Shown here in pieces: positions 1,251 to 15,649 of a DNA stretch of 64,000 nucleotides. This DNA comes from an uncultured Bacteroidales bacterium (GTDB lineage: Bacteria > Bacteroidota > Bacteroidia > Bacteroidales > F082): positions 3,961 to 67,960 of the forward strand of contig CAMYXV010000001.1 of assembly GCA_947303055.1 (NCBI GenBank). Direction: 5' to 3'. Below the pieces are notes generated by a model, which was not told the DNA's origin, ran no database searches, and saw only the letters and a program-made list of their open reading frames with translations. The position numbers and the translations under genes are program-made. Position 1 is the stretch's first letter. Each line of letters opens with the position of its first letter.

Positions 1251-1760
1251 ATGAAAAATCTACTAACATTATTAATTATGTGTCTCTGCTTTTTCACTGG
1301 CTGCAAGGCGCAATCGAAGGTTGACAATTCAGTGTCGGGTGATTTGAATCTCGACAAATATCTCGGCGATTGGTATGAGATAGCTCGTTTTGACCATAAA
1401 TTTGAACGTGGAATTCAATTCTGCAAAGCCCAGTATTCACTACGTGAAGATGGTAAGGTTGCAGTTTTGAACACTGGTATCAAAGACGGCAAACATAGCG
1501 AGGCTAAAGGTAAGGCGAAGTTCACTGATAATCCAAGAGTTTTAAGAGTTTTGTTCTTTGGTCCATTTTATGGCGACTATCGCATCATGCTCTTAGATGA
1601 ATATTATCAATGGGTTTTAGTTGGTGGCAGCGATGAGAGTTATTTGTGGATACTTTCACGTACACCAAAACTAACAGATGATGTAAAAGATATCGTCCTC
1701 GCCGAAGCGACAAGAAGAGGGTACGATGTGCAGAAGTTGATTTGGGTGGAGCAGGAATAG
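1251..1760 (+). CDS. blc: bacterial lipocalin (Blc-type outer-membrane lipoprotein)
   Basis: Lipoprotein signal with lipobox (LCFFTGC) and the lipocalin signature LDKYLGDWYEIARFDHKFERG. Confidence 0.85.
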   Translation: MKNLLTLLIMCLCFFTGCKAQSKVDNSVSGDLNLDKYLGDWYEIARFDHKFERGIQFCKAQYSLREDGKVAVLNTGIKDGKHSEAKGKAKFTDNPRVLRVLFFGPFYGDYRIMLLDEYYQWVLVGGSDESYLWILSRTPKLTDDVKDIVLAEATRRGYDVQKLIWVEQE

Positions 1761-1844
1761 ATATTAGTATGTGAATAAATATTACACAAAAAAAGAGAAT
1801 AAATGATCATAAAATACAAATACATCAAAAAATATCTTTTATTG

Positions 1845-2096
1845 ATGGCTGTAGAACAGCTTTTAGATGAGTATAAGGAAAATGGATTTGAAATAAAATC
1901 CCAATATCCTATTATTGGCTCTCTAAGAGTGGATTTATTTGCGGTCAAAGGAGATGAAAGGATAGCTATTGAGTTTGTGGATAATCAAACTTCTGATGAT
2001 ACAGTATCACGATTGCAGCAAATCGCGCAGGAAGAGGATTTTGTCCTAAAACTTATAGACATTTCAGCTATACAATTAGAATACAAAAACTTATGA
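1845..2096 (+). CDS. small hypothetical protein (about 83 aa from the MAVEQLL start); possibly a nuclease-like fold
   Basis: Its stop overlaps the next start by ATGA at 2093-2096. The stretch SLRVDLFAVKGDERIAIEFVD loosely resembles a PD-(D/E)xK core, but the ExK element is not intact. The start could be the upstream ATG at 1803. Confidence 0.4.
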   Translation: MAVEQLLDEYKENGFEIKSQYPIIGSLRVDLFAVKGDERIAIEFVDNQTSDDTVSRLQQIAQEEDFVLKLIDISAIQLEYKNL

Positions 2097-3454
2097 CATA
2101 TTTAAAACGCATAAAAACAAGTAATTTTAAATGCTTCTCAGACGAAGTTGATATAGAACTTGGTAAGTTGACGTTACTTACTGGTGCTAATAGTACAGGT
2201 AAAAGTTCGTTGATGTACAGTGTGCTAGGTGCTTTGCAGTCACCGAGATTCCCATATGAGTATTCTGCCAATGGGCGATTTGTGAATATGGGCAGTTTCT
2301 CTGAGATGGTATTTAGACATGACAATTCCCTTCCAATTGGGGTTTCTTTTACTTTGGTCGATAACGGAGTCCCAATTGACATTGAAACGACGTGGGAGTA
2401 TAGAGAATACAACGATCAGCCTGTTCTAAAGAATTACAAGGCACATTCTGAAGACTTCAAAATTAGTATCAAACCCAAAGAGGATGGTAATGAAACAGAT
2501 TTTATACTTGATTTAGATTATGATCCTAGGAGTATTCTTAAAGTGCATGGTTTTGAACAGTTTATGTCGGGTCTTTTTCAGGTGTTTGATACAAACAATT
2601 TGACGAAGAAAGACAAAGACATTTCGAACAAAATCAGAGATGTGTACAAGAAACGCACTATTGTGAAGGACGTTCTTTTAGTAGCAAATGATAAGGGCTT
2701 GAATTGCCCTAATGATATTAGTGCTTCCGTAGCATTCGGAATAGTCGACGGCTTGATAAGAGATGCAATTAATCGTTATAAAAACAAAATGAACTTTATT
2801 AGTTCTTATCGTTTGGCAGCAGAACGCATTTATCTTGAAGAGAGTCTAACCGACGGGAAAATTCAGGCTTCGGGTAAAGGTTTTGTTAATCAAATGCTTT
2901 ATTGGCGAGAAAGCAATCGTAAAAACTATGAATCTCTAATTAATGCCATGAGGTTCATGAAAGTACTTTATGATATTGAGCCGGAAAGAATAGGTGGTGG
3001 GCAGTTTAAAATAGGTGTTACTATTCATAAAGATGGCCCCAAAGCTTCATTAAGCGATGTGGGTTTCGGCATTTCACAATTGCTACCTATTATTGTTGGT
3101 GATATTGAACTAGGTAATGAATCAACGCTCTTTTCAGCGCAGCCAGAGATACATCTTCATCCAAATGCTCAAGCAAATTATGCCGACTATCTTGTCAGTC
3201 AAATAGCTCAAAATAAAAACTATATAGTTGAAACACACAGCGAATATTTACTCAATCGTATTCGACTGGCTATAGTTAAAGGTCAATTGAATGAAGACGA
3301 TATTCGTGTTTATTATCTCTCTCAAGAACATGATACCACAAAATTGTATCCAATTGTTTTTACAAAAAGTGGGCAAATTAATGGTGCTCCTAGTGATTTT
3401 TTTGAGACATATATGATTGATGTGATGAATATAGCGATGGAAGCAGTGGGATGA
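2093..3454 (+). CDS. ABC/SMC-like AAA ATPase (AAA_21/DUF3696-like)
   Basis: Walker A GANSTGKSS near the N-terminus, FGISQLLPIIV, Walker B/D-loop QPEIHLHPNAQ, and H-loop ETHSEYLLNRIR. No transmembrane segments. Confidence 0.8.
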   Translation: MTYLKRIKTSNFKCFSDEVDIELGKLTLLTGANSTGKSSLMYSVLGALQSPRFPYEYSANGRFVNMGSFSEMVFRHDNSLPIGVSFTLVDNGVPIDIETTWEYREYNDQPVLKNYKAHSEDFKISIKPKEDGNETDFILDLDYDPRSILKVHGFEQFMSGLFQVFDTNNLTKKDKDISNKIRDVYKKRTIVKDVLLVANDKGLNCPNDISASVAFGIVDGLIRDAINRYKNKMNFISSYRLAAERIYLEESLTDGKIQASGKGFVNQMLYWRESNRKNYESLINAMRFMKVLYDIEPERIGGGQFKIGVTIHKDGPKASLSDVGFGISQLLPIIVGDIELGNESTLFSAQPEIHLHPNAQANYADYLVSQIAQNKNYIVETHSEYLLNRIRLAIVKGQLNEDDIRVYYLSQEHDTTKLYPIVFTKSGQINGAPSDFFETYMIDVMNIAMEAVG

Positions 3455-3930
3455 AACACGATATTTTTATTGATAACAATATTGCCTGTAAATTTTCTAA
3501 TCCGGCAGATCCAGAGTATAAGGAACTTATTCGTTGGTTGATGGATAATCACAAAATAGAGGATGGTAAAGATGATGATAGAGCATATTTAGTTGTATCT
3601 CAAAAGCTATTAGCGGAGTATTATCGTTCTTGTAGAGATGCTGTTGGCAAAACATCAATTCCAATGATTATAAATCAGTTAACAAAAGATGGGCGTCTTG
3701 CACGATTTTCTAATGAGGAAATCAAAGGATTCAAAAGTAAATATTTTACAAAAGCAATAGAAAAGAAACTAAGATCTAATAATGAAGATTGTGAGCATAT
3801 TCCTCCAGTTCTGATGTCCGATAGGAAATATGCACTGACTTACGATGATAACTTCACATATGACTTGGAACATTTTCCTGGTTTTACTGTTATTGTACAA
3901 AAACGTCCCGAGGATATACCATATCGTTAA
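3451..3930 (+). CDS. hypothetical partner protein (159 aa), possibly PIN-like
   Basis: ATGA start/stop overlap with the ATPase at 3451-3454. The N-terminal DIFIDNNIA resembles the first acidic strand of PIN domains. This is weak. Confidence 0.5.
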   Translation: MKHDIFIDNNIACKFSNPADPEYKELIRWLMDNHKIEDGKDDDRAYLVVSQKLLAEYYRSCRDAVGKTSIPMIINQLTKDGRLARFSNEEIKGFKSKYFTKAIEKKLRSNNEDCEHIPPVLMSDRKYALTYDDNFTYDLEHFPGFTVIVQKRPEDIPYR

Positions 3931-3986
3931 ATAGCGTCTGGAGATATGCATGAATAAATAAGTTGTATTATTAATGCAAATTATAA

Positions 3987-5336
3987 ATGTCCGTTATAGT
4001 AAATACGAAAATACAACCTTTGGTTGACGATTTGAGATGGGTATTGCCAGGTGAATTTTTGGCATCGACTGCATTCAAGCGGTGGATGGTGGAAAAGAAT
4101 CTGGACGAGGATTGGAAAGAGTTTGTTAGTATTGTTCGTCAAAACCGAAACGTTGTTGTATTAGGTTACGACCATGATGCTGGTGATGCAAGGGATGCAC
4201 TCGGATATTTGATAAATAGGATTTTTGAGCAACAAAAAACAAAGTTGCCTAAATTTGTGTATGAGTTGTTAGAGTTCTATTCGGAAGAAAAATCAGAGCA
4301 TGTTGATGCATCAAATATTAAAAAAGATTTGTATGCTGCAGGGTATTCGAAAAAAACGGTATCCAAGTTCGACAACTTTTCTGATTCAAAGCTAAAAGTA
4401 ATGAAAGAAACAGAGAATAATTCCCAGATGGTAAAACCAGTGACTAATAAGAAAAAGACACCAATGGTTTTTATCAGTCATTCTCATGGGGATGAAGATT
4501 TCGTTAAAGCTCTTGTCAATTTGCTGGAAGATATTGGCCTTGGCGCAAAAACAATGTTTTGTAGCTCTGTTAGAGAATATGGGATAAAACTTAGTGGCGA
4601 TATATTTGAAACAATACGCCAATTGTTTCATGAGCACGAACTGTATGTGATTTTTGTGCATTCACCGCGTTTCTATAACAGTGTGGTTTCATTGAACGAA
4701 ATGGGTGCTGCTTGGGTTTTAAGGACAGATTTTTGTTCTTTCTTAACAAATGATATGTCCTATGACCAAATGAACGGTGTTGTTAACAATGCGAAAATAT
4801 CTATTAAGGTTGATGACAAAGATGCCCCATCTTTGTTGAACGAATTGTATAAACAGCTAACACAACTCTTTGCACTTTCAGAAATGGATATGAACAAATG
4901 GGAACGCAAACGCGATCAGTTCATTACACTTGTACGAAATTTAAAGTATGATGAGGTTAAGAAAACCGTTGAAGAGAAAAATGTTGACATGGAGTATAAA
5001 AAGCTTCAAATAGCCAAGATGAAAGCTGAAGCCGAGGACCGTCATAAGGCTTATATCCGTGGCAATATTGTTAAAGATTATCAGGGTAAACGCACTTTAA
5101 AAATATTCAATGCAGGGCAAAGTACTGCGCGAAATGTCCTGGTAGAATGGCTTAATGAAAGTGATCGTGTCATTGTTAGAGGTGAATTTTATAATATTGG
5201 AGAGTTAACCCCTCAAAATGCGCGAAGCTATACTTTGTTGTTATCTATCGGGTGTCCGGATACAATGAATCTTCGATACACATGGGATGATGATTTCGCT
5301 GTTGGAAATAAACTTGAAGAAACATTGCAATTATAA
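3987..5336 (+). CDS. TIR-domain protein (449 aa) with unknown N- and C-terminal domains
   Basis: TIR core MVFISHSHGDEDFVKALVNLLEDIGL ... YVIFVHSPRFYNSVVSLNEMGAAWVL, with a candidate catalytic Glu in NEMG. A coiled-coil follows, then a roughly 90 aa C-terminal domain. Confidence 0.8.
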   Translation: MSVIVNTKIQPLVDDLRWVLPGEFLASTAFKRWMVEKNLDEDWKEFVSIVRQNRNVVVLGYDHDAGDARDALGYLINRIFEQQKTKLPKFVYELLEFYSEEKSEHVDASNIKKDLYAAGYSKKTVSKFDNFSDSKLKVMKETENNSQMVKPVTNKKKTPMVFISHSHGDEDFVKALVNLLEDIGLGAKTMFCSSVREYGIKLSGDIFETIRQLFHEHELYVIFVHSPRFYNSVVSLNEMGAAWVLRTDFCSFLTNDMSYDQMNGVVNNAKISIKVDDKDAPSLLNELYKQLTQLFALSEMDMNKWERKRDQFITLVRNLKYDEVKKTVEEKNVDMEYKKLQIAKMKAEAEDRHKAYIRGNIVKDYQGKRTLKIFNAGQSTARNVLVEWLNESDRVIVRGEFYNIGELTPQNARSYTLLLSIGCPDTMNLRYTWDDDFAVGNKLEETLQL

Positions 5337-5342
5337 CGAACA

Positions 5343-5618
5343 ATGAAAAAGAATTATAGTAAAAATATCAGTTTGCGCTGTGTCACATGTGGGAGTGATT
5401 CAGATTTTGAGAGTAATGATGATAAAACATACATTGTATGCAAAAAATGTAATCGTGAATACCTTGGAGGTTATAGTGAATTGGTGGAATTAAATGAAGG
5501 CCTCATCAATGATGAAGTTATGAAAACCAAAAAAGAGTTAGCTCAAGATATGCAAAAGGAGATTACAGAGAGGTTAAAAAACGCTTTTAAGGGGAATAAG
5601 TATATTCATATTAAGTGA
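5343..5618 (+). CDS. small zinc-ribbon protein (91 aa)
   Basis: CVTCGS...CKKCNREY four-Cys ribbon. Starts 6 nt after the TIR gene on the same strand. Confidence 0.5.
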   Translation: MKKNYSKNISLRCVTCGSDSDFESNDDKTYIVCKKCNREYLGGYSELVELNEGLINDEVMKTKKELAQDMQKEITERLKNAFKGNKYIHIK

Positions 5619-5839
5619 AAATTAAAAAGTAACTGATGTTTGCCAAGCAAAGCATGCAAGAGCGATGAAAGTTTGAAGAAAAAAGATTACAAGGCTAGAC
5701 TGTCATATACTGTAATTGTGTGTCGATGACTTAAGGTCATATTCGTACCAAGTTCGAATCAAGTTAGAAGGATAGTGAAGGATATGGGACGAAGAAAAAG
5801 CGAAGAAATAAATATAAAAATTTAAAATATCTATAACAA

Positions 5840-6129
5840 ATGATCACCATCGGAATTATCGCCTGCGCCCCCGTGCCTGGAGCCCTCAAAGACTGGTTGG
5901 AACACAACAACCCTGAGTGCTAGCTTTTCATCTGTGATCCTCCTAAGGGATATAATGATGACCTGAGCAATGTGGATATTGCATGAAGACTGGCCATCAG
6001 GTGTGCTACATGCTCGAGTTCCTCACCGAGCGCACGCATATCGAGGACTTCAAGAAGCAGACCATGGTCTTCACGGGCGCGCACGAGCTGAATGTGCATT
6101 TCCGTGGGGTGGAGGAACATATATAAAAA
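5840..6129 (+). pseudogene. GC-rich decayed coding fragments of unknown family
   Basis: The ATG at 5840 opens a frame that hits an in-frame TAG at 5921-5923 and continues as LFICDPPKGYNDDLSNVDIA. A second short frame (MKTGHQVCYMLEFLTERTHIEDFKKQ...) follows after a frame change. There is no intact ORF on either strand. Confidence 0.3.
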
Positions 6130-6206
6130 GAACACGGACCGCACCCGTGAAGTGCAATCCGTGTTCAAAAGGAAGCGTTCTGAAAGGCTGAAACAAGGCA
6201 CTCTAT

Positions 6207-6235
6207 TAAGCTTCTAAGCTACTAAGCGATTAAGC
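6207..6235. repeat. TAAGCnnn x4 array, strict 8-nt phase
   Basis: TAAGC occurs at 6207, 6215, 6223 and 6231. The array overlaps the stop of the minus-strand amidase gene. Confidence 0.8.
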
Positions 6236-6649
6236 GGGTTGCAAATCGCGATATTCGTTTGCAGCGTCGAAGCAGGGGCAGGCCTTCATGGGGTTGAAAA
6301 CGTTGTGGCCCATGATCAAGGCCTTGGGGAACTGAGCGTGAAGCTCTTCGAGTAGTTGGCGCATCGCAAGCTTTTGAGCCTCGGTGCGGGTGTCGGCAGG
6401 GCGACCTTCGGTGTCCAAGCCGCCTTCGTAGCAGATGCCAATGGAGTGGCGGTTGTGGTTTTGGCAATGGGCACCGATCATATCGTACGGGCGACCGTCT
6501 TCAATGGTGCCGTCGCGGCGAATCACCTTGTGGTAGCCGCAACCTTTCCAGCCGTGGGCACGATGCCAGCGGTCGATGTCCTCAACAGAGCTTTGCTGCC
6601 AAGGACGCACTGCGGAGCAGTGGATGATGATAAGTGTGATAACTCTCAT
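6230..6649 (-). CDS. N-acetylmuramoyl-L-alanine amidase (Amidase_2 / PGRP-like)
   Basis: IIHCSA, GYHKVIRRDGTIEDGRP, GAHCQNHNRHSIGICYEGG. This is the short amidase type common next to Bacteroidales polysaccharide loci. Confidence 0.85.
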   Translation of the reverse strand: MRVITLIIIHCSAVRPWQQSSVEDIDRWHRAHGWKGCGYHKVIRRDGTIEDGRPYDMIGAHCQNHNRHSIGICYEGGLDTEGRPADTRTEAQKLAMRQLLEELHAQFPKALIMGHNVFNPMKACPCFDAANEYRDLQPA

Positions 6650-6805: not shown

Positions 6806-7003
6806 TTACATAGCCATGTAGGCTGCGGCGGCTACCGCGCCACTGGTTGTGGCTGCACCGGCCAAGAGGAGGCCAATCAAGTAGGCCAACACTTTGAGGA
6901 CGATGACCCACCAGGGGTCGTTAGCTTTGATACCGGCTTCTTGAGCCTTCTCAGGATTTGCCAGAATCTCTTCGATCTGGGCTTTTGTTAACTTGATTTT
7001 CAT
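6806..7003 (-). CDS. small membrane protein (65 aa), holin-like topology
   Basis: Start taken at MKIKLTKAQIEEIL (ATG at 7001-7003). There is a single hydrophobic helix, WWVIVLKVLAYLIGLLLAGAATT. The upstream extension to 7138 reads like non-coding AT-rich sequence. Confidence 0.5.
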   Translation of the reverse strand: MKIKLTKAQIEEILANPEKAQEAGIKANDPWWVIVLKVLAYLIGLLLAGAATTSGAVAAAAYMAM

Positions 7004-7044
7004 TGCTTTGAAGTTTTTAATGTTAATAATTCGAAAAAAAATAC

Positions 7045-7052
7045 TATCTTTG
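7045..7052 (+). promoter_or_regulatory. Bacteroidetes -7 promoter element (TAnnTTTG)
   Basis: TATCTTTG followed by CAAAAAAT, 19 nt upstream of the ATG at 7071. The same TTTGCAAAAAAT context occurs at 61842. Confidence 0.5.
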
Positions 7053-7070
7053 CAAAAAATTTGAATAGAC

Positions 7071-7340
7071 ATGTGTACAGTCCAGATAAAGATAGATGAT
7101 GCCAAGATGCGGCAGATCAACCCCAATCTCACCACCACCGAGAGTATTGGTGACTGGTTGCAGCGGGAGGTTGACGATTTACTCGACGATTATGTCAGCG
7201 ATCTGTCAATGCCCCCTTGCAGCCGCACCCGAGAGGAGATGATGGCCATCTGCGACCAGCGTATGGACGACATCCTCACAGGCCGTTCCACCACCATCCC
7301 TCACGATGAAGTGATGCGCCGCATGAATGAGAAATACTAA
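7071..7340 (+). CDS. hypothetical protein (89 aa), antitoxin-like small acidic protein
   Basis: Clean ORF behind the promoter motif. The C-terminal IPHDEVMRRMNEKY tail resembles antitoxin-type proteins, but no partner toxin is adjacent. Confidence 0.45.
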   Translation: MCTVQIKIDDAKMRQINPNLTTTESIGDWLQREVDDLLDDYVSDLSMPPCSRTREEMMAICDQRMDDILTGRSTTIPHDEVMRRMNEKY

Positions 7341-7426
7341 ACAACCGTCGCAACCCCGCTGCCTTGCGCCGTCTTTTGCTAGGGTTGAGATAGTCCAGAG
7401 CTCGGAGTCAGCTTCAAGTTGACCCT

Positions 7427-7491
7427 TAAACTTTAAACTTTGAACTTTGAACTGTCAACTGCTCTAAACTCTACACACTAAACTCTAAACT
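7427..7491. repeat. T(A/G/C)AAC word array, 7-nt phase, between convergent genes
   Basis: TAAAC at 7427 and 7434, TGAAC at 7441 and 7448, TCAAC at 7455, then TAAAC at 7465, 7479 and 7486. Confidence 0.7.
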
Positions 7492-7500
7492 GAGCGAAGC

Positions 7501-8409
7501 TTACTCAGTCTCCGGATTCTCGCCACCTTCGCCCTTCGTGAACACCTTGGTGGTCACCGAGCTCGAAACACCGTCCTTCACGGCGATGGCCTTCACAGTG
7601 GTAGTGTCAGTGATGGTCAGAGCCTCAGAGTAGGCGGTGCTTGCGGAGGTAGGAGTGGAACCGTCAACGGTGTAGTGGATCGAGGCTCCTGCGGTGGCGC
7701 AGCTGATGGTTGCCGAAGTGCTTTCAGCAAACGGAGTCGTACCGCTGATTACCGGAGCAGCCACAGCGGGCGTTTCGGAACCCGAGCCAGAACCCGAACC
7801 CGAGCCTGAGCCGCCACCCGAACCAGAGCTTGAACCACTTGAACCGCTTGAACCGCTTTCAACCACCACAGTCGAGCCATCCGGGTTGAATGTGGTAGTG
7901 GTGCCGTTCTCAGCCACAATGACCACGATGGTGCTGGCGCCCGCAGCGGCGCGCAGGGTGATGGTCGAGGGCCATTCGCCTTCCAGATACACCTCGCCGT
8001 AGCCCGCCAGGCGACCGATGGTGATGGCCTTGGGGTTGGCGGCGGCGTAGGCGCAGATGGCCTCTTCCACATCGTCGATGGTGACAATCTCGCCAGCCAC
8101 CATCACGTCGGCCAGCGTGTCGAGGGCGGCGCGGAGTGCCTTGCCGTTCACCGCATAGTAGCGGTTGGTGGCGTTGCCGTTGCCCTTGGGCGTGAAGGTC
8201 TGCTTGATGGTGCGCAGATGGTACTTCAGGTGCATCTGGATCATCTTGAAGATGGCCTGGCGCTTCAGCGCGGCAGGGGTGGTGTAAGCCTTCGCAGGCA
8301 TGATGGGGTTAGAACGGACAAAAGTCTTGCCGTTGCGTACCACGTAAGTGATACCGTCGATGGTGCCAGCCGTCTTACGACCAGGACCGATCTGTTTAAT
8401 AGTTGCCAT
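7501..8409 (-). CDS. secreted/surface-type protein with a Ser/Gly linker and a C-terminal Fn3-associated (CHB_HEX_C-like) domain
   Basis: Low-complexity SGSSGSSGSSSGSGGGSGSGSGSGSGS linker. The C-terminal IHYTVDGSTPTSASTAYSEALTITDTTTVKAIAVKDG is typical of chitobiase/hexosaminidase C-terminal-like modules. Confidence 0.6.
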   Translation of the reverse strand: MATIKQIGPGRKTAGTIDGITYVVRNGKTFVRSNPIMPAKAYTTPAALKRQAIFKMIQMHLKYHLRTIKQTFTPKGNGNATNRYYAVNGKALRAALDTLADVMVAGEIVTIDDVEEAICAYAAANPKAITIGRLAGYGEVYLEGEWPSTITLRAAAGASTIVVIVAENGTTTTFNPDGSTVVVESGSSGSSGSSSGSGGGSGSGSGSGSGSETPAVAAPVISGTTPFAESTSATISCATAGASIHYTVDGSTPTSASTAYSEALTITDTTTVKAIAVKDGVSSSVTTKVFTKGEGGENPETE

Positions 8410-8425
8410 GATTTTTTAATTTAAA

Positions 8426-8460
8426 TTGATAGTTGATAATTGAAAATTGATAATTGAAGA
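8426..8460. repeat. TTGAnnn x5 array, 7-nt phase, immediately 5' of the 7501-8409 start codon
   Basis: TTGA at 8426, 8433, 8440, 8447 and 8454. Confidence 0.75.
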
Positions 8461-8653
8461 AAGAGTCACCTAAGTTTCAGCCTATATCCAGTATGTCAAA
8501 GAACGCTTGTCATCAGAAGGTCAGTTGTTCTGTCTGATTGACGGTGCAATAATACAACTGTTTGAAAGTCAATATCTTAAATAGAAACTTCGTGAAACTT
8601 TCTTACAACTTTCAGTACTAAAATCAGTCGTTTACCAACCAAAAAAGAAAGTT

Positions 8654-9181
8654 ATGGACATCAACATTCAGGGCAACCCAGGTACGGGCAATACCTTCCA
8701 GGAGATAAAAATCGGGCATGTGGAGAACTATGTTCCCAATGCCACGCAGGTGGTGAACAACTACTATGGCAATCAAGGCAAGCCTAAAGGCGAAGGTCCG
8801 GCCATCGACAAATCCGTTATCCGTAAGGCTATTCTCGAAGATGCAAGCAAGTTGCTCGATATGGTTTATAAGCCGAAGCAAGCCATCTGGATGAGCCTCT
8901 GGAACGATATTATCGACCTCCCTGCGGTGAAGATTGATATCTTCATACCAGGCAAGCAGAACGACAAACTCTATAAGCGAATCCTGTTTGCCGCTATCGT
9001 TCACTACCTTGGCAGCGACGAGAACAACTGCCTGGGCTGGTTCAGCCACTACAACGCCTCCGACATCGCTGAAACCCTCGTGGGTTCATCCTTGAAGTCT
9101 ATGCGTGGCGAACTCGGAGCACAGCCCTCCGACGAAGTCCAAACCGCCATCAACAACCTCATCAACGAGAAATACTCTTGA
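8654..9181 (+). CDS. hypothetical protein (175 aa)
   Basis: Clean GC-rich ORF. The N-terminal peptide is Gly/Asn-rich (MDINIQGNPGTGNTFQEIKIGHVENYV). Confidence 0.6.
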   Translation: MDINIQGNPGTGNTFQEIKIGHVENYVPNATQVVNNYYGNQGKPKGEGPAIDKSVIRKAILEDASKLLDMVYKPKQAIWMSLWNDIIDLPAVKIDIFIPGKQNDKLYKRILFAAIVHYLGSDENNCLGWFSHYNASDIAETLVGSSLKSMRGELGAQPSDEVQTAINNLINEKYS

Positions 9182-9214
9182 ACCCTTAAACTCATGAACT
9201 CTTGAACCAATCAT

Positions 9215-9242
9215 TAACCTTTAACCTTTAACCTTTAACCGT
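9215..9242. repeat. TAACCTT x4 tandem repeat (7 nt)
   Basis: TAACC at 9215, 9222, 9229 and 9236, between the stop at 9181 and the start at 9249. Confidence 0.85.
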
Positions 9243-9248
9243 TATTTA

Positions 9249-10499
9249 ATGACCGCTTCCGACCTATATCGCAAACTCTACTATTGCGGCTACACCGACA
9301 TCGAGGCCTATCTGCATGACAACCCCGTTAACCGCTACATCTACAAGCAGTTGATCGAACTGAGGCAGAACGGCACGGTGAAGACGCCCACACTGACCCT
9401 CTTCAACGAGGTGTACTATCAGTGCGTGAAGGTGCAGACCGACCGCCTGCCGGGCGAGGAGGTGCAGCGCCGCTATCTGCGCGATACCGAGGATTGGCTT
9501 GGCTCATGCAATTCCGCCCTGCTGGTGATGAGCATCGTGTGGGCACTCATGAAACGCAAGTTCAAACCCTCCTTCAGCGACGAGTGCTTTGTTGAGCAGA
9601 TGACCCCGGTCGTGAAGAATGGCGACTATTCCATCCTGGCCGCAAAACTGGTTCAGTTCATGACCTCCGAAAGCATCTACACGCCCTACGAGTTCAAGAC
9701 CATGCCCAGCCCGGTCAACACCCTCCCAATAGGCAATTCTTACGAAGGTGATGAGATGTGGCGTACGGTCACTGAACATTTCACCCCCTCCGTGGTTGAG
9801 GGTCTGCTGACGCTCTATACCAACCGTGCCGAGCAAGGCGACCTGCTCAACTGCATTGTGGGTGGTATGTCGTACGAGGAAAAACGCGACAACACCGAGC
9901 TGGTGCGCCGACTGAGGGAGAACATCGAGAAGGGCGACTACCTGCCCCATGGCAACTATTTTGACAATCAGGATGACGACCCTGATACCGACTACGACTT
10001 CATGTTTGCCGCCAACCTCAAACAGACCATGGAGGAGGCCTACGACGACCGTGCCGAGCAATACAAGCAGGAGCGCGACACCTATAAATATCGTTTGGAG
10101 GAGCAAAAGAAAGCCCATGCCGCCGAGATTGCCCGCTTGGAGGCCAACTATCAGGCCGAGATTGCCCGCCTGAAAACCCTGCTGGAGCAACAGCCCCAGC
10201 CCGTAGCCCCGGCACCGGAAGCCGCAACCCCAACCGCCGCCGCCGAACCCGCCTTCACCCTCACCGAGATGGTGGCACTCGTGAAGGAGCGTTTCAGCAA
10301 GCCGGGTGCCGACGAGGTGAGTGCCATGTTCTACAGCCTTGCCGCCGAACACCAATACCTTAGCGGCGATGTACTCAAGCTTATCAACGGCATCGTTCCT
10401 GCCGTCTTGCAGCGCGACAGCCGCAACCAATATTTCGAGCTGCCCAACGTACAGCAGTTCAACAACAACCCCGGGAACGTAAACAACAACCCCCAATGA
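9249..10499 (+). CDS. hypothetical protein (416 aa) with an internal coiled-coil/Pro-Ala linker
   Basis: Repeated AEIARLEANYQAEIARLKT, then QPQPVAPAPEAATPTAAAEP. The stop overlaps the next start by ATGA at 10496-10499. Confidence 0.65.
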   Translation: MTASDLYRKLYYCGYTDIEAYLHDNPVNRYIYKQLIELRQNGTVKTPTLTLFNEVYYQCVKVQTDRLPGEEVQRRYLRDTEDWLGSCNSALLVMSIVWALMKRKFKPSFSDECFVEQMTPVVKNGDYSILAAKLVQFMTSESIYTPYEFKTMPSPVNTLPIGNSYEGDEMWRTVTEHFTPSVVEGLLTLYTNRAEQGDLLNCIVGGMSYEEKRDNTELVRRLRENIEKGDYLPHGNYFDNQDDDPDTDYDFMFAANLKQTMEEAYDDRAEQYKQERDTYKYRLEEQKKAHAAEIARLEANYQAEIARLKTLLEQQPQPVAPAPEAATPTAAAEPAFTLTEMVALVKERFSKPGADEVSAMFYSLAAEHQYLSGDVLKLINGIVPAVLQRDSRNQYFELPNVQQFNNNPGNVNNNPQ

Positions 10500-13400
10500 C
10501 CAAGACCAGTCCTCAAAACAGCAAACGGAACTTTCAGCTTCGGCAAAAGTATCTGCACATCTTCTTCAGCTATACCAAGCGTTCGAGCGCCCTCCATAGC
10601 CTGAAGAGCATTGTGGATATCGAGTCGTTGCGCGAGGTGCAGAAAAGCATCGGCACCTTTGTGCCCACGCTGAAGGCTGAGATTGAGGGCTGCCTCTTCC
10701 CAGCCGACTTCAAGGAGCTTTGCTCCACGCTGGTGTCGTTTGTGCGACCCTTCTCCCTGCAGTCCGAGCTGATATGGCTCAGCAGCTATCTGATCGACTA
10801 TCAGCAGGAGCTGCACTGGTTCTTGGAAAAGAAAGAGCGTTTCGAGCAGAAGTTCCTCTTGGGCGAGTTTGCCGATTGCTACGACATTTTAGAGGAGGTG
10901 AAAGGCAAAATCGGCGTGTCGCTCTGGTACTACGAGTCCATGTTCCTGCTCTACGAGTATTGGGACAAGCGCAAGGAGGGCGACCTGCTGATGTCGGCCT
11001 GCCTCGAACAGACCAAAGATGCCGACACCAACCACCTTCAGTCGCTCGTATATATGCTTCATCTCAGAAGCACCACCAACATTTCGCCCTACAAGTTCGA
11101 CGACGACCTCGACTCGCTCTACAAGCAGAACAAGACCCTGCTGCATGAGGATTACTACCGCTACGTGCTCTTCCGCCTCAACATGTTCAACAACCTCCGT
11201 CAGGAGGAACTGTCGTTCAACATGATGTTCGAGTCGCTGTCGGCCTTGGTCGATCGCTATCTGATGGCGGTGAATGTCATCAAGGCATCGGCTGTGAATG
11301 AGAAGCTTGACGATGAGCTGATTGCCCGTGCCAGGTATCTCTACTCAAAAACCGACGACAAGGAGTTGCTGCCCCTGCTGGCCAAGGATTCCAAACGCAT
11401 GAAGGCATCCTACTACAACGCCTCCTTCATCGGCATTCTCGACAGCTTCTATGGCGGCGACTACCAGCGCACGGTGCAGCTGTGCCGCGAGTATGTCAAG
11501 GGCGATGCCAGCCTGTTTGATGTGCTGGTCGTCTATTGCCGTTCGCTGGTCTATCTCGGTCAGAGCTATGAGGGCATCTACCCCTTGCCCAATGCCCCTG
11601 TCAACAAGTTGTGCAGCAGAATCTACAGCGTGCTCACCGAAAAAGACAACCACGAGACCGTCTATTCGCTCTACCAGATGAACAAGAACCTCTATGGGTT
11701 CCATCTGGCGGCCTCGATGCACGTGTTCGTGATGAAGGAGCTGAACGAGCCGGTTGAAGACCGCTACCGTGTCTATTGGACCAGCTGTTTCGACCCCGAC
11801 TTTGCCACCTCGGCCTACTCCGACCCCAACGCAGCCGTTGAATACCTGAATTCCTATCCCGACTGCCATGCGTCGCTGGTTTGCAAGGCTACGCTGGCCA
11901 GGATTGAGGGCAGCGAGCTTCAGTCTGGCACAATATCCAACAATGTGGTGACACCTCACAACGCCACCGTTAAGATGGCCAACGAGGACTATGCGGCGGC
12001 CTACCAGCTGTGGAGCGATTTCTACGACGCTTCTGAGGCGTGGCTGCCCAACCGCCAGAAAGCGGTGAGGAACATGGTGAGCTGTCTCCACAAGTCGGGC
12101 CAGACCGGGCAGGCCATCACGCTCTATGTCGATTGCTTGCTCAACGATCAGGCCGCCACCCTCAAGGTTGACACCGATGCCATCATCAAGAGCCTTCAGG
12201 ACAATCTCTATGAAGGCATCCGCCGCAATATCGACCTTGCCATCTTCATGGGTCTCAACTGCAAGGATGGCGTTGACAAGAGCTTCATTCTCCTGGAGTA
12301 TTGCGAAACCAAGGAGGTCACACTGCCTTCCGAGCTGATAGGCAAGCTTGACGAGCCTCTCGACCGGCAGGAGGTGTTCTTCGCCATCTTGGACGACGAC
12401 GAAACCCTGCGGCACTATTTCAATATTCCCAGCCTCAAGGAACGCCTGAACGAGCGACTGAAAATCATCAACTATCTCGTCAAACTCGACACCCCCAACA
12501 AGGAGGTTTATCAGCAACGGCAGAAAGAGGTGGAGGATGCCCTGCTGGTCTATCGCGTGTCAAAAAACCTCAACGAGGGCAAGATTTACGCCAACGACCA
12601 AGCCATCCTGAAATACAAGCTCACCGAGATTGACGGCCTTTTCAAACGCTTCATGCGTCTGTTCGATATGATTGTCAACGAGCACAGCCGCATCTATGTC
12701 ATCGATTTCAAACATTCCACAGTGCTCTACACCCAGGACGGCTACGATGGCGAAAAGGTGAAGTCGAAGACCAGCATCAGCGAAAACGGCATCTACGAGG
12801 TGTTCTATTCGCTCTACGACTATGTGCTCGACAAGTTCCTCTACAGCGAGTTCGGTCTGGTGGCCTACCTGAGCACCCGTGTGCGTCACGGCGAACTGGA
12901 GAGCAAGCTGCGCCCCGAGCTGGCACAGCGCAACCTCATCCTCTCCATGAAGGACAACACCTATCAGGATACCTCCTATTGGCGTGAGCAATACAACCTG
13001 TCGCCAGCCGAGAACACCACCGTCAACACCGCCCTCGCCAAGTTCTCGCGCGACTTCGATGCCGAGGTCATCGACCTCATCAAGGAACGCCTGCAAATCT
13101 ACGACCGCGAGAAGAAGCCCAAAGGCCTCTTCAACTACACCATCGACGAGAACGAGCTGGCCCACAAGACCATGGAGATTGGCATTTTGACCAAGGATGC
13201 GGGGGGAAGCCGCGAGGAGTTCTGCCGGCTGGTGATCAAGTGGCTCTGGCAGAAGACCGAAGTCTGCCTGACAGAAATCAGACATTACATCGCCGGTGAG
13301 TTCACCGAGAAGATCAATGGACTGTTCGAGACCCTGAAGGCCGACCTCAGCACCGAGGCACTCCCCGTGGGACACGCCTACTCTTTCCTTCAGGCCACCA

Positions 13401-13987
13401 TTGCCGAGGCCTCATCGGTCATCGCCAGCCGCCTGAAGACCATCGAGTGCTGGTTCAACATCACCGGCACCAAGCTCGACGATGTTGACATCAAGCAGCT
13501 CACCTATCAGGTATGCAACAACACCCGCACCACCTACAACCAAATCAAGGTGGCGGGCAAGCCCCGCATCGATGGCGAGTCGTTCAAAATCAAGTCGTCC
13601 TACGTGCTGCACTATGCCGACATGCTGAGCAATCTGGTGGCCAATATGATCAAGCATGGCGTCGCCGACGAGACGGGCACCAAAGCCATCACACTCAACT
13701 TTGCCATTTCCGACAAAATGGTGGCCATGCATTTCGAGAACAAGGTGGAGACGGGGCAGGAGGAACACCTGAACCAGATCTTCACCGAGAAGCTCTCCAG
13801 CAAAGCCTCGTTCTTCAACGCCGAAGGCGGCAGCGGCATCGCCAAGGTCAACAAGATTCTGCGTGCCGACTTCCAGAACAGCGACAACGAGTTGAAGATA
13901 TGGGCTGAGAATGGCACTTGTGTGACCGAAGTGAAACTCTTTACCGAAAATCTTAGAAGCAATGTGCAAGAAAGTGCTTGTGATTGA
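10496..13987 (+). CDS. dtcA: soluble giant sensor histidine kinase (DtcA-like): long helical/TPR-like N-terminus + GHKL ATPase
   Basis: Candidate H-box STRVRHGELESKL, N-box LSNLVANMIKHG and G-box AEGGSGIAKVNKIL at the C-terminus. The roughly 900 aa N-terminal region has no transmembrane helices. Confidence 0.75.
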   Translation: MTKTSPQNSKRNFQLRQKYLHIFFSYTKRSSALHSLKSIVDIESLREVQKSIGTFVPTLKAEIEGCLFPADFKELCSTLVSFVRPFSLQSELIWLSSYLIDYQQELHWFLEKKERFEQKFLLGEFADCYDILEEVKGKIGVSLWYYESMFLLYEYWDKRKEGDLLMSACLEQTKDADTNHLQSLVYMLHLRSTTNISPYKFDDDLDSLYKQNKTLLHEDYYRYVLFRLNMFNNLRQEELSFNMMFESLSALVDRYLMAVNVIKASAVNEKLDDELIARARYLYSKTDDKELLPLLAKDSKRMKASYYNASFIGILDSFYGGDYQRTVQLCREYVKGDASLFDVLVVYCRSLVYLGQSYEGIYPLPNAPVNKLCSRIYSVLTEKDNHETVYSLYQMNKNLYGFHLAASMHVFVMKELNEPVEDRYRVYWTSCFDPDFATSAYSDPNAAVEYLNSYPDCHASLVCKATLARIEGSELQSGTISNNVVTPHNATVKMANEDYAAAYQLWSDFYDASEAWLPNRQKAVRNMVSCLHKSGQTGQAITLYVDCLLNDQAATLKVDTDAIIKSLQDNLYEGIRRNIDLAIFMGLNCKDGVDKSFILLEYCETKEVTLPSELIGKLDEPLDRQEVFFAILDDDETLRHYFNIPSLKERLNERLKIINYLVKLDTPNKEVYQQRQKEVEDALLVYRVSKNLNEGKIYANDQAILKYKLTEIDGLFKRFMRLFDMIVNEHSRIYVIDFKHSTVLYTQDGYDGEKVKSKTSISENGIYEVFYSLYDYVLDKFLYSEFGLVAYLSTRVRHGELESKLRPELAQRNLILSMKDNTYQDTSYWREQYNLSPAENTTVNTALAKFSRDFDAEVIDLIKERLQIYDREKKPKGLFNYTIDENELAHKTMEIGILTKDAGGSREEFCRLVIKWLWQKTEVCLTEIRHYIAGEFTEKINGLFETLKADLSTEALPVGHAYSFLQATIAEASSVIASRLKTIECWFNITGTKLDDVDIKQLTYQVCNNTRTTYNQIKVAGKPRIDGESFKIKSSYVLHYADMLSNLVANMIKHGVADETGTKAITLNFAISDKMVAMHFENKVETGQEEHLNQIFTEKLSSKASFFNAEGGSGIAKVNKILRADFQNSDNELKIWAENGTCVTEVKLFTENLRSNVQESACD

Positions 13988-14411
13988 GGACAACGAGGCG
14001 AAACTGAACAAACTCAGGCAGTTTTGCGCCGACTATTGGCCCGGCTATCAGGTGGAGTGCCGCAGCTCTTACAACACCGCGCTGAGCGAGGTGGTGCATC
14101 GGGGCAAGTTCTACGACATCATCCTGCTCGATGTCAGCATGAACACCTACGAGGTGAACGGCGATGCCTCCGACGGCGAGCAGGAGCCGCTGGCAGGAGC
14201 CAATATACTGCGCTTCATGAAGCTGCGCAAAATCAATGTGCCGGTCATCGTGGTCACCATGTACGAGAGCTTTGTGGACGGCATCCGCATCGACAGGCTC
14301 GATGAGGGCTTCCGCGCCAAATACCCCGAGTTCTACAAAGGCTATGTCTATTATAACCTGAAAAACGAGGATTGGATCAACAAACTTAACGAATTAATGG
14401 CAGGGATATGA
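13962..14411 (+). CDS. dtcB: stand-alone receiver (REC) domain protein (DtcB-like)
   Basis: VLVIEDNE, phospho-acceptor context IILLDVSM, and VIVVTMYE. There is no output domain. The start lies 26 nt inside the kinase ORF. Confidence 0.8.
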   Translation: MCKKVLVIEDNEAKLNKLRQFCADYWPGYQVECRSSYNTALSEVVHRGKFYDIILLDVSMNTYEVNGDASDGEQEPLAGANILRFMKLRKINVPVIVVTMYESFVDGIRIDRLDEGFRAKYPEFYKGYVYYNLKNEDWINKLNELMAGI

Positions 14412-15649
14412 TTAGGGTATTGATTATGGACGACACCCCCGAAAAAACCAGCAAGATAAAATCGGTGCTGATGGGGAAGTGCATGCTGCACGAGAGCGAA
14501 ATCACCGTGGCCAAGTCAATCAACAGCGGACGGCGTATGCTTTCGGCTGAAAGCTACGACCTGCTTATCCTCGACCTGGTGATGCCTGTCAACGACGGCG
14601 AGGAGGTGGGTGCCGAGGGGCAGAGCGAAGGCTTCATTGATGAGCTTTCGCGCGTGGGCCGTCTGAACAAGCCTATCTATATCATTGCTCTTACGCAATA
14701 CAAGGAGAAGATTGAGGAGAACCGCCAGACCTACGCCAAAAAGCTGTGGAAGCTGATACATTACGACCTGAAGCAGACCGAGTGGGAAGATGTGTTGCAG
14801 GATGCGGTGGATACCATCATCGAGACCAAGCGGAAACTCTTGGAGCATATCGCGAAGGAGAACCGCTTCGATGTGGGGTTGCTCTGCGCCCTTCCCGAGG
14901 AGTTTGAGATGATGAAGGCTGCCACCTCGCCCAATTGGGTGGTGAAGGAGGACGACCATTCGCCCTTCAACCTCTACACCCTTCAGGTGCGTACCGAAAA
15001 CGGCCATTCGCTCCGTTTGCTGGCCTGCTGTTGCAATGCGCCCGGAATGCAGGCTGCGTCGGTGGCGGCATCCTATATGTTGAGCCGATATGGCCTCGCG
15101 ATACTGTTTATGACGGGTTTCTGTGCAGGCTTCAAAAAAGACGGAGTGAACCGTGGCGACCTGTTTGTTGCCGACTCCGAATACGACTATGGCAGCGGCA
15201 AACTGGCACGCAACGCCAACAACGACCAGGTGCTCAACACCGAGCAGAAGCAGTATCCATGTTCATTTGAATTATTGGGCAAGCTTAATGCCTTCATTGC
15301 TGCGCAGAATATGCCCGACAAGTTGCGCACCGAGCTCGAAAGGGTGGGTTATCTGCAAGAGGAGATGGGCCAGCCCGCCATCCATGTGGCTCCTGGCACC
15401 TGTGGCTCGTATGTGGTGGGCGACGAAGCCTTTATGAATAAGCTGCGTAAGGAAGGCAACCGCAAGCTTACAGGGCTTGACATGGAAGGCTATGGCCTGT
15501 ATCTGGCCGGTCACATGCTGAAGAAAGACTGTGTGCTGGTGAAAGGCATCGCCGACTATGGCGACGGTGTGAAAGACGACAAGTATCACCGCACCTGCTC
15601 CTACGCCAGTGCCTGGTTTGTGATGCGATTTATCAAGGTGATGCTGTAA
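14408..15649 (+). CDS. dtcC: response regulator with a PNP_UDP_1-type nucleoside phosphorylase/nucleosidase effector domain (DtcC-like)
   Basis: REC motifs VLIMDD, LLILDLVMP and IIALTQY. The C-terminal half carries FDVGLLCALPEEFEMM, LTGLDMEGYGLYLAG and VKGIADYGD. ATGA overlap with the previous gene. Confidence 0.85.
   Translation: MIRVLIMDDTPEKTSKIKSVLMGKCMLHESEITVAKSINSGRRMLSAESYDLLILDLVMPVNDGEEVGAEGQSEGFIDELSRVGRLNKPIYIIALTQYKEKIEENRQTYAKKLWKLIHYDLKQTEWEDVLQDAVDTIIETKRKLLEHIAKENRFDVGLLCALPEEFEMMKAATSPNWVVKEDDHSPFNLYTLQVRTENGHSLRLLACCCNAPGMQAASVAASYMLSRYGLAILFMTGFCAGFKKDGVNRGDLFVADSEYDYGSGKLARNANNDQVLNTEQKQYPCSFELLGKLNAFIAAQNMPDKLRTELERVGYLQEEMGQPAIHVAPGTCGSYVVGDEAFMNKLRKEGNRKLTGLDMEGYGLYLAGHMLKKDCVLVKGIADYGDGVKDDKYHRTCSYASAWFVMRFIKVML

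Follow-up and report, generated by a model that had tools for sequence, protein, structure and literature searches.

Two putative anti-phage modules, an NsnB-like ATPase-PIN pair and a SpbK-type TIR protein with a zinc-ribbon partner, in an accessory block of an uncultured Bacteroidales bacterium

In the anti-phage systems PARIS (AriA-AriB) and Septu (PtuA-PtuB), the nuclease effector (Toprim/DUF4435 in the former, HNH in the latter) is held by an oligomeric ABC ATPase until infection is sensed. The Menshen system (Millman 2022) comprises NsnA (ParB-DUF262 plus ParBDB), NsnB and NsnC, in which an inactive PIN domain precedes a C-terminal toxin; in a predicted NsnB4-NsnC2 model, the paired DUF3696 tails of the NsnB tetramer clamp the PIN-like domain of NsnC, and sporadic domain loss was reported by Li et al. 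(PMC12065111). We found no mention of NsnA-less pairs in the text of that article. HEC-03 consists of an ABC ATPase and a VapC-like PIN protein, and both genes are required to protect Escherichia coli; the system lowers phage plaquing by orders of magnitude and is toxic when induced (bioRxiv 10.1101/2024.01.29.577857). SpbK, from Bacillus subtilis ICEBs1, is a TIR protein of 266 amino acids (aa) encoded by a single gene, whose trigger is the SP-beta portal protein YonE (PMC8880864, PMC11984713, PMC12847820). Here we describe a block of five genes, designated A to E, situated at positions 1845–5618 of a 64,000-nt stretch of DNA (hereafter, the window) from an uncultured Bacteroidales bacterium (positions 3,961–67,960 of contig CAMYXV010000001.1). 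Judging from sequence comparisons, the block appears to hold two modules that are relatives of these known defence systems, in gene arrangements that are not listed in PADLOC v2. We consider it reasonably probable that the two are separate anti-phage modules of the abortive-infection type, which are stacked within a defence hotspot bordering a capsule-synthesis locus of this ruminant-gut bacterium.

The block is composed of two unrelated modules, B-C (plus A) and D-E. The list of open reading frames (ORFs) of the window confirmed the five genes at their positions within an AT-rich block of ca. 3.8 kb, and these ORFs are not due to chance, because ORFs of ca. 450 aa are improbable in DNA of 35 % G+C and each of them has many conserved homologues (234 matches for C, 1841 for D, mostly other TIR proteins, and 235 for E). 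A profile scan with one genome per species yielded 80 B-C loci, and neither D nor E was present in any of them; D-E, in turn, occurred without A-B-C in every locus examined, in three different neighbourhoods. These results rule out a single system of five genes. In contig L009, from a close relative, D is 88 % identical to D from the window and starts at most 14 nt after the stop codon of the lipocalin gene, i.e., A-B-C is absent. In blastn comparisons, positions 219–1759 of the window corresponded to 5444–6986 of L009, and 3972–5624 to 6985–8638; since these flanks are contiguous in L009, the window holds an insertion of 2.2 kb (1760–3971, + strand) with genes A, B, and C. Likewise, a contig from run X3, a gut metagenome, joins position 1759 to 3980, leaving out 2,220 nt. 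This contig (depth of ca. 4) was found alongside contigs bearing A-B-C (depth of ca. 7), and the coexistence of both forms in one metagenome indicates that the cassette is polymorphic between strains. No target-site duplication was seen at its junctions. An earlier note on this DNA, made from the sequence alone, had read the accessory block as one defence module or two. There are two; their accessory nature is supported by the AT-richness, by the strain-variable A-B-C cassette and by a PDC-M60 system 5 kb downstream, and a role in defence is probable by homology.

Gene B (2093–3454, + strand, 453 aa) codes for an ABC ATPase of the NsnB type. Its product matches Pfam families AAA_15 (2e-19) and DUF3696 (5e-8), and its best match in PADLOC is NsnB (1.3e-52, 178 bits), followed by HEC-03B (1e-39, 135 bits), PDC-M55A (5e-37) and AriA (1e-20). 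The match to NsnB is full length, with residues 4–447 of B aligned to positions 2–342 of the 345 of the model. We located the Walker A motif (2183–2206), a signature-like DVGFGISQ motif (ca. 3056–3079), the Walker B motif with PEIHLHP (ca. 3143–3163), the H-loop ETHSEY (ca. 3230–3247) and the C-terminal DUF3696 tail (3287–3430), all on the + strand; all five features, the signature-like motif as GxG and the Walker B in the form PE.HLHP, were conserved in 75 homologues of B. The motifs singled out in the earlier note for the ATPase and the TIR protein, GANSTGKSS, QPEIHLHPNAQ, ETHSEYLLNRIR, MVFISHSHGDEDF, and SLNEMGAAW, are all present in the translations. The possibility, also raised there, that B belongs to a transporter or repair family was rejected, because the matches to ABC transporters, RecF, SMC, and UvrA were weak (E-values of at least 6e-4) and limited to the N-terminal P-loop; additionally, the gene neighbours differ from genome to genome.

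Genes B and C form an obligate gene pair: a homologue of B is situated directly 5′ of C in all of the 80 genomes, which belong to about nine phyla, including Bacteroidota, Cyanobacteriota (Pseudanabaena), Planctomycetota, Acidobacteriota, Chloroflexota, Desulfobacterota, and Omnitrophota. In the window, the ATGA overlaps described before between A and B (2093–2096) and between B and C (3451–3454) can be read directly. The neighbourhood of the 159-aa product of C, which the earlier note proposed to analyse, is conserved as far as B is concerned. An enrichment of the pair near defence genes was not apparent for the family as a whole. TIR_2 was matched by two of the 71 upstream neighbours of B-C pairs that were scanned. 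Separately, the gene directly 5′ of B-C in a Bacteroidia genome (L018, 3909–4583) looks like a TIR gene by its N-terminal sequence, of a TIR family different from that of D, so that an ATPase-PIN and a TIR module adjoin in that genome as well.

Gene C (3451–3930, + strand, 159 aa) is presumed to code for the nuclease effector of the pair. An AlphaFold2 model obtained with a 50-sequence alignment (pLDDT, the predicted score of the local distance difference test, 94.1; predicted template modelling score, pTM, 0.89) has a three-layer alpha/beta/alpha arrangement with a parallel sheet. In a Foldseek search of the PDB nearly all of the top scorers were VapC/PIN proteins, with probabilities of ca. 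1.0, template modelling (TM) scores of 0.5–0.6 and identities of 8–16 % (best match 3zvk_C, E-value 1.8e-3, TM scores 0.53/0.61). We are thus confident in the modelled PIN fold at the level of fold, and the PIN-like start (DIFIDNNIA) that had been regarded as weak in the earlier note fits with it. Residues D8, E56, D113, and D132 were invariant in 50 sequences, as were D4, D20, and D138. In the model, D8 lies at the end of beta-1, E56 in the helix after beta-2, and D113 and D132 after beta-4; these positions are compatible with the acidic tetrad of PIN domains. The family is uniform, with 140–175 aa throughout. It makes up 205 clusters among 1.84 billion representatives, and all of the 150 clusters listed are single-domain; the 120 sequences listed among the 234 matches are 58–99 % identical, and homologues from the genome loci are 42–80 % identical to C across phyla.

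The comparison with Menshen reveals a shared core in a different setting. As in Menshen, B is an ABC ATPase of the NsnB type, with AAA_15, a DUF3696 C-terminal helix and a GxG signature-like motif, the gene downstream begins with a PIN-fold domain, and the genes are tightly coupled. In contrast, there is no NsnA in the window or beside any of the 80 pairs, and the PADLOC model for NsnA does not match A; C is a single PIN domain without the C-terminal toxin of the two-domain NsnC, it retains invariant acidic residues whereas the PIN domains of NsnC are inactive, and it is highly conserved whereas NsnC is hypervariable. The PADLOC model for NsnC does not match C, and matched one out of 50 of its relatives at 0.006. 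Since NsnA and a two-domain NsnC are both missing, A-B-C was rejected as a member of Menshen.

Among experimentally validated systems, the architecture of B-C is closest to that of HEC-03, also a two-gene combination of ATPase and PIN protein. The model for the HEC-03 ATPase (PDLC04148) matches B at 1e-39, mainly over its C-terminal half and tail. Nevertheless, PADLOC requires for HEC-03 a match to both models, and the HEC-03 PIN model missed C and all of 50 family members, even at E-values of up to 10; moreover, B resembles NsnB more than it does the ATPase of HEC-03, and HEC-03 was found embedded in Hma systems whereas B-C is mostly free-standing. The likeness to PARIS and Septu, beyond the shared logic of an ATPase that holds a nuclease, is limited to the ATPase core, which alone accounts for the matches of B to the AriA (1e-20) and PtuA models; their effectors are different and their ATPases lack the DUF3696 tail. 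From these comparisons B-C is best described as a putative family-level variant of the kind formed by an NsnB-like ABC ATPase and a PIN protein.

Gene A (+ strand) starts either at an upstream ATG (1803–2096, 97 aa) or at position 1845 (1845–2096, 83 aa), and its homologues, 52 % identical, occur solely in contigs L006 to L008 and L016, the identity covering residues before Met15. Its product matches the Pfam AHJR-like domain (PF18743), with an E-value of 5e-6 and 26.5 bits, barely above the cutoff of 26.1. This domain has a PD-(D/E)xK fold, although on our reading of the sequence another residue seems to stand in place of the ExK lysine, with IEFV in A and IELV in a homologue. Gene A was found in one of the 80 genome loci and in one type of metagenomic locus, no equivalent or other conserved small ORF preceded B in the remaining 73 loci that were scored, and A had no match in PADLOC, in PHROG or in plasmids. 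Because only two related locus types besides the window contain it, A was discarded as a core component, and we treat it as a lineage-specific add-on outside the conserved core.

By analogy with the prediction for NsnB and the PIN domain of NsnC in Menshen, B would oligomerise and hold C between its DUF3696 helices. A phage cue sensed by B would alter the binding or hydrolysis of ATP, releasing or activating the PIN nuclease C, which would then cut RNA (tRNA, rRNA or mRNA) and arrest the infected cell. This logic would be that of PARIS, Septu, and HEC-03. Protein A, a small and probably non-catalytic PD-(D/E)xK-fold protein, may be an additional DNA-binding sensor or a regulator.

Gene D (3987–5336, + strand, 449 aa) starts 56 nt after C, and its product is a TIR protein with additional N- and C-terminal domains, as the earlier note described. 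The model shows a helical N-terminal domain (aa 1–131; 3987–4379), a disordered linker, the TIR domain (aa 156–317; 4452–4937), with catalytic residue E238, and a C-terminal module formed by a helix/coiled coil and a beta-sandwich (aa 333–449; 4983–5333; pLDDT >90), which we call the CC-beta module. By homology, the TIR domain is of the SpbK type, a predicted NADase in which the catalytic glutamate and the residues of the filament interface are kept, in agreement with the previous view of D as a defence effector. The PADLOC model spbK matched at 5.5e-52, a profile aligned with the SpbK sequence from the PDB (4e-24), including LNEMGA.WV, and the best Foldseek match was SpbK (9phb_A; E-value 7e-9, TM score 0.79, 31 % identity), followed by the TIR of SPARTA (TIR-APAZ). 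Residues N237, E238, G240, and W243 were invariant in 42 homologues of D and correspond to N191, E192, G194, and W197 of SpbK. In SpbK, E192 is in the modelled NAD+-binding site and the other three form the interface between filament strands; mutation of these three abolishes NADase activity even with YonE, and both defence and NADase activity depend on the four residues (PMC12847820).

The likeness of D to SpbK thus comprises the TIR domain, including the region of the extra alpha-F helix, the catalytic glutamate and the N/G/W residues of alpha-C, as well as the presence of a helical N-terminal domain and a flexible linker. Unlike SpbK, which stands as a single gene, D carries the CC-beta module and has an obligate-looking zinc-ribbon neighbour. 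Additionally, its N-terminal domain does not match the solved SpbK sequence (PDB 9phb), only the TIR being aligned, and YonE cannot be assumed to be the trigger of D. Among the proteins combining TIR and CC-beta, the core of TIR and module is 49–72 % identical, with N-terminal stretches of 75–230 residues that belong to at least three unrelated types. Relatives of 535 aa are commoner than those with the length of D; the idea that they contain a different C-terminal domain was rejected, because they have instead an insert of ca. 85 aa before the TIR. Other relatives, of 321–328 aa, consist of the N-terminal domain and the TIR, without CC-beta, and also lack E. In two contexts (L177, 4001–5723, and L180, 4001–5744), such a gene is followed after a gap of 22 nt by a 244-aa AbiGi gene, which suggests a separate TIR-AbiGi pairing.

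Gene E (5343–5618, + strand, 91 aa) starts 6 nt after D. The members of its family are uniformly 91 aa long; the protein is helical in the middle and has a basic tail, KGNK.I.IK, that is conserved, and the four cysteines noted before are present in its CxxC...CxxC zinc ribbon (5379–5450), C13, C16, C33, and C36 being invariant in 30 homologues. Its match to the NCBIfam model ECs_2282_CxxC (8e-7, 28.9 bits) is under the cutoff of 37 bits, but E. coli proteins with 38 % identity to it, over 98 % of its length, reach 58 bits against the same cutoff and are named by PGAP as ECs_2282 family; weak matches to the ribbons of MqsA, TFIIB, and S27e were also found. The E. coli partner of these proteins corresponds to the C-terminal part of D (BLASTP, 8e-13), of which residues 319–449 match phrog_6723 (3e-8), whose function is not annotated. 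The two E. coli proteins are listed in RefSeq as “ECs_2282 family putative zinc-binding protein” and, recently, as “DUF8453 domain-containing protein”, and a literature search found no published function for the ECs_2282 family.

The zinc ribbon tracks the CC-beta module, and not the TIR domain. With a profile of E we collected 80 metagenomic loci, and adjacent ORFs were scored with a hidden Markov model of the C-terminal module of D: a CC-beta ORF adjoined E in 71 of them, and six of the remaining nine end at a contig edge on one side. The 71 neighbours comprised 15 long TIR fusions and five short proteins upstream of E, and 51 proteins of ca. 150 aa directly downstream. These stand-alone proteins have one N-terminal transmembrane helix, followed by the coiled coil and the beta-sandwich. 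The locus of the window shares with E. coli, Klebsiella, gut Bacteroidales, and phage contigs the proximity of the ribbon and CC-beta. It differs in that the CC-beta protein of nearly all other loci is ca. 150 aa with a single N-terminal transmembrane helix and the ribbon gene usually comes first, whereas in D the N-terminal domain and TIR (ca. 320 aa) replace the helix and the ribbon gene is second. In E. coli the pair is followed by another conserved gene, the third of these loci, which codes for 123 aa without a family match (L176, 5771–6142; L195, 7780–8151; L196, 6530–6901) and is absent from the locus of the window.

The stand-alone pair was found inside type I restriction-modification operons, where it either separates hsdM from hsdS or follows hsdR, on 67 mostly conjugative plasmids of enterobacteria (an E. 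coli plasmid pair is at L176, 4992–5728) and in 104 out of 5426 complete genomes of E. coli. It also occurred in an integrase-bearing island beside hipBA and on 13 viral contigs from IMG/VR, and E had no match in the phage GenBank collection; no PADLOC v2 model matched E or the CC-beta module. In a filamentous prophage of E. coli F11, the CC-beta gene is preceded by a different 140-aa protein that replaces the zinc ribbon.

As in SpbK, the activity of the TIR of D would need clustering of TIR domains. Specificity for phages would come from the variable N-terminal domain, and the CC-beta module and E would make up a conserved switch over oligomerisation, in which E may act as an inhibitor, as a sensor of nucleic acid or protein, or as a scaffold; we propose this switch because the lone transmembrane helix and the TIR are both effectors that act only when clustered. 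Upon triggering, the TIR would degrade NAD+, and in the far commoner relatives with a transmembrane helix the membrane would be breached.

A broader reading of both modules, which we hold as tentative and slightly less probable than even, is that the zinc ribbon and CC-beta constitute a widespread defence chassis with an exchangeable killing part, and that B-C is the free-standing NsnB-NsnC core of Menshen, with a live PIN. The killing part would be one transmembrane helix in most loci and, in rumen Bacteroidales, an SpbK-type TIR with swappable N-terminal sensors, D-E being the TIR-armed form. For B-C, the PIN may have been the original effector, later disarmed to an adaptor in Menshen.

Several observations weigh against the interpretation of the block as two anti-phage modules. 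An anti-phage function is putative for both, being suggested by homology and linkage, and physical contact between B and C and between D and E is likewise proposed from gene linkage and the published prediction for Menshen. No model from Pfam, PADLOC, NCBIfam or PHROGs and no PDB sequence matched protein C, whose profile returned only noise against the PDB sequences, so that the PIN call is one of fold (Foldseek E-value of ca. 2e-3, 8–16 % identity). To these can be added the marginal Pfam score and guessed role of A, the three roles conceivable for E, and the neighbours of B-C, which differ between nearly all genomes and are for the most part housekeeping genes, with a few AAA_21, AAA_15, TIR, methylase or DpnI genes.

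This setting of B-C, usually a lone two-gene cassette among housekeeping genes with few defence neighbours, would also fit a pair that is mainly an addiction or stress module of the toxin-antitoxin kind, in which the ATPase restrains a PIN toxin and the pair stabilises the DNA that carries it instead of acting against phages; VapC proteins, the classic toxins, are PIN proteins, and HEC-03 is toxic when induced. We consider this alternative unlikely, because the partner of C is an ATPase of 400–460 aa with all catalytic motifs, and not a small labile antitoxin, and because the nearest architecture that has been tested, that of HEC-03, strongly lowers phage plaquing. Furthermore, no match to C or to the pair was found on the plasmids searched or on viral contigs, where addiction modules are expected, and the B-C pair of the window is in a defence island, although the two roles are not mutually exclusive.

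For the second module, D could be a self-sufficient, single-gene defence similar to SpbK, which acts alone in B. subtilis, with E being an unrelated small gene, for example a transcription regulator or a toxin or antitoxin partner of CC-beta that has no part in controlling the TIR. The existence of 321–328-aa relatives without E agrees with this, and so does the resemblance of the zinc ribbon to DNA-binding ribbons (the weak matches to MqsA, TFIIB, and S27e). However, E follows D with a gap of 0–10 nt in every full-length TIR-CC-beta locus seen, and it accompanies CC-beta fused either to TIR or to a transmembrane helix, in either gene order; that the two stay together in Bacteroidales, Enterobacteriaceae, plasmids, and phages speaks for a function common to E and CC-beta, and makes an independent D decidedly improbable.

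It is very unlikely that A-B-C is a degraded or atypical Menshen, with A standing in for, or remaining from, NsnA and C being a truncated NsnC: the best catalogue match of B is NsnB, the order of small gene, ATPase and PIN-like gene echoes that of NsnA-B-C, sporadic domain loss has been reported and one relative of C weakly matches NsnC, but A has no match to ParB-DUF262 or ParBDB and is missing from 79 of the 80 genome loci, none of the 71 upstream and 74 downstream neighbours of B-C scanned is a DUF262 protein, and the uniform length, conservation, single-domain clusters, and retained acidic residues of C, the latter lacking in the inactive PIN domains of NsnC, indicate a stable stand-alone system and not decay.

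Our preferred interpretation, that of two stacked anti-phage modules, also takes account of the surroundings of the block. The upstream genes, which the earlier note had taken as housekeeping-looking (rbr, blc), code for rubrerythrin and lipocalin, as deduced from 83 % nucleotide identity to an annotated relative, with an ORF of 155 aa (765–1232, + strand) between them that had no family match and was also found in L009 and L010. The G+C content is 0.40–0.49 upstream, 0.32–0.38 in the block and 0.46–0.63 downstream, in agreement with the previous description of an AT-rich block followed by GC-rich DNA. The decayed gene fragments reported at 5840–6129 correspond to the remnant of a 251-aa UDP-glucose/GDP-mannose dehydrogenase (UDPG_MGDP_dh) fragment gene (5803–6126, + strand), identified by blastn and tblastx at the downstream edge of the block, which is split into three pieces with internal deletions when compared with L006 to L009 and L016. 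The same 251-aa fragment gene borders defence islands in related contigs. The sequence derives from metagenomes of the bovine, goat, and sheep gut. Rumen metatranscriptomes gave a few short contigs on B and C, which constitute weak evidence for transcription given a possible carry-over of DNA, and a scan for sigma-70 promoters, which is not suited to Bacteroidota, found no more sites than in shuffled sequence.

By sequence, the first 16 kb of the window are a defence island beside genes that look like those for capsule synthesis. A PDC-M60A/B/C system is located at 10496–15649 (+ strand; PADLOC, 8.7e-48, 4.5e-29 and 1.3e-64), comprising proteins of 1163 aa, of 149 aa with a receiver domain, and of 413 aa with a receiver and PNP_UDP_1, with a G+C content of 0.53–0.59 that contrasts strongly with the AT-rich block; we take this to be the Detocs architecture. 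The cassettes found in relatives at the same place include pairs of AAA_15 and 175–181-aa proteins, PIN_8/PIN_12, a caspase-like protein, an HD protein, and AbiGi. They have a full UDP-glucose dehydrogenase gene at one side and one or more copies of the 251-aa fragment at the other (L006, 535–1986 and 14004–14759; L009, 2575–3873, 11612–12367, and 14865 to the end; run X7, contig 27), and in one metagenome the A-E block is flanked by copies of the dehydrogenase fragment on both sides. These repeated fragments may be a substrate for recombination that shuffles cassettes at capsule loci.

Another pair recurs beside TIR or ATPase-PIN modules of relatives and may be a candidate system, consisting of an AAA_15/AAA_21 ATPase (394–436 aa) and, after it, an unannotated protein of 175–181 aa (L006, 2301–4022; L013, 8969–10716; L180, 1949–3814). 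Downstream of the block, the window contains a gene for an N-acetylmuramoyl-L-alanine amidase (Amidase_2; 6230–6649, - strand), followed by a terminator-like hairpin with a 17-bp stem (6130–6166), the strongest of the region, situated at the step from low to high G+C. Between the amidase gene and the PDC-M60 system there is a gene for a 302-aa protein (7501–8409, - strand; G+C of 0.60–0.63) with a long Gly/Ser run and a C-terminus with Fn3_assoc/CHB_HEX_C_1, and two ORFs of 175 and 416 aa (8654–10499, + strand), just 5′ of the PDC-M60A gene, had no family match.

In the earlier note, the block could not be assigned to any named system. This is still correct in that neither module is a full member of one, but the ATPase is evidently related to NsnB and HEC-03 and the TIR is of the SpbK type. 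The first module would reduce the core of Menshen to two proteins, allowing the direct study of whether an ATPase with a DUF3696 tail controls a PIN domain, and of what it senses, without the polymorphic parts NsnA and NsnC, and it suggests an origin for the “inactive PIN” adaptor of Menshen. The locus as a whole illustrates the stacking and swapping of defence cassettes at the capsule loci of gut Bacteroidales. The second module would connect the NADase TIR of SpbK, whose structure is understood, with a putative switch of two conserved parts that would also operate a membrane effector of one helix, and we regard its zinc-ribbon/CC-beta chassis as a more novel lead than B-C. This pair is present on conjugative plasmids of E. 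coli and Klebsiella, in prophages and in type I restriction-modification operons, and is absent from PADLOC v2; if our interpretation is correct, it would be a common defence system in bacteria of clinical and agricultural relevance.

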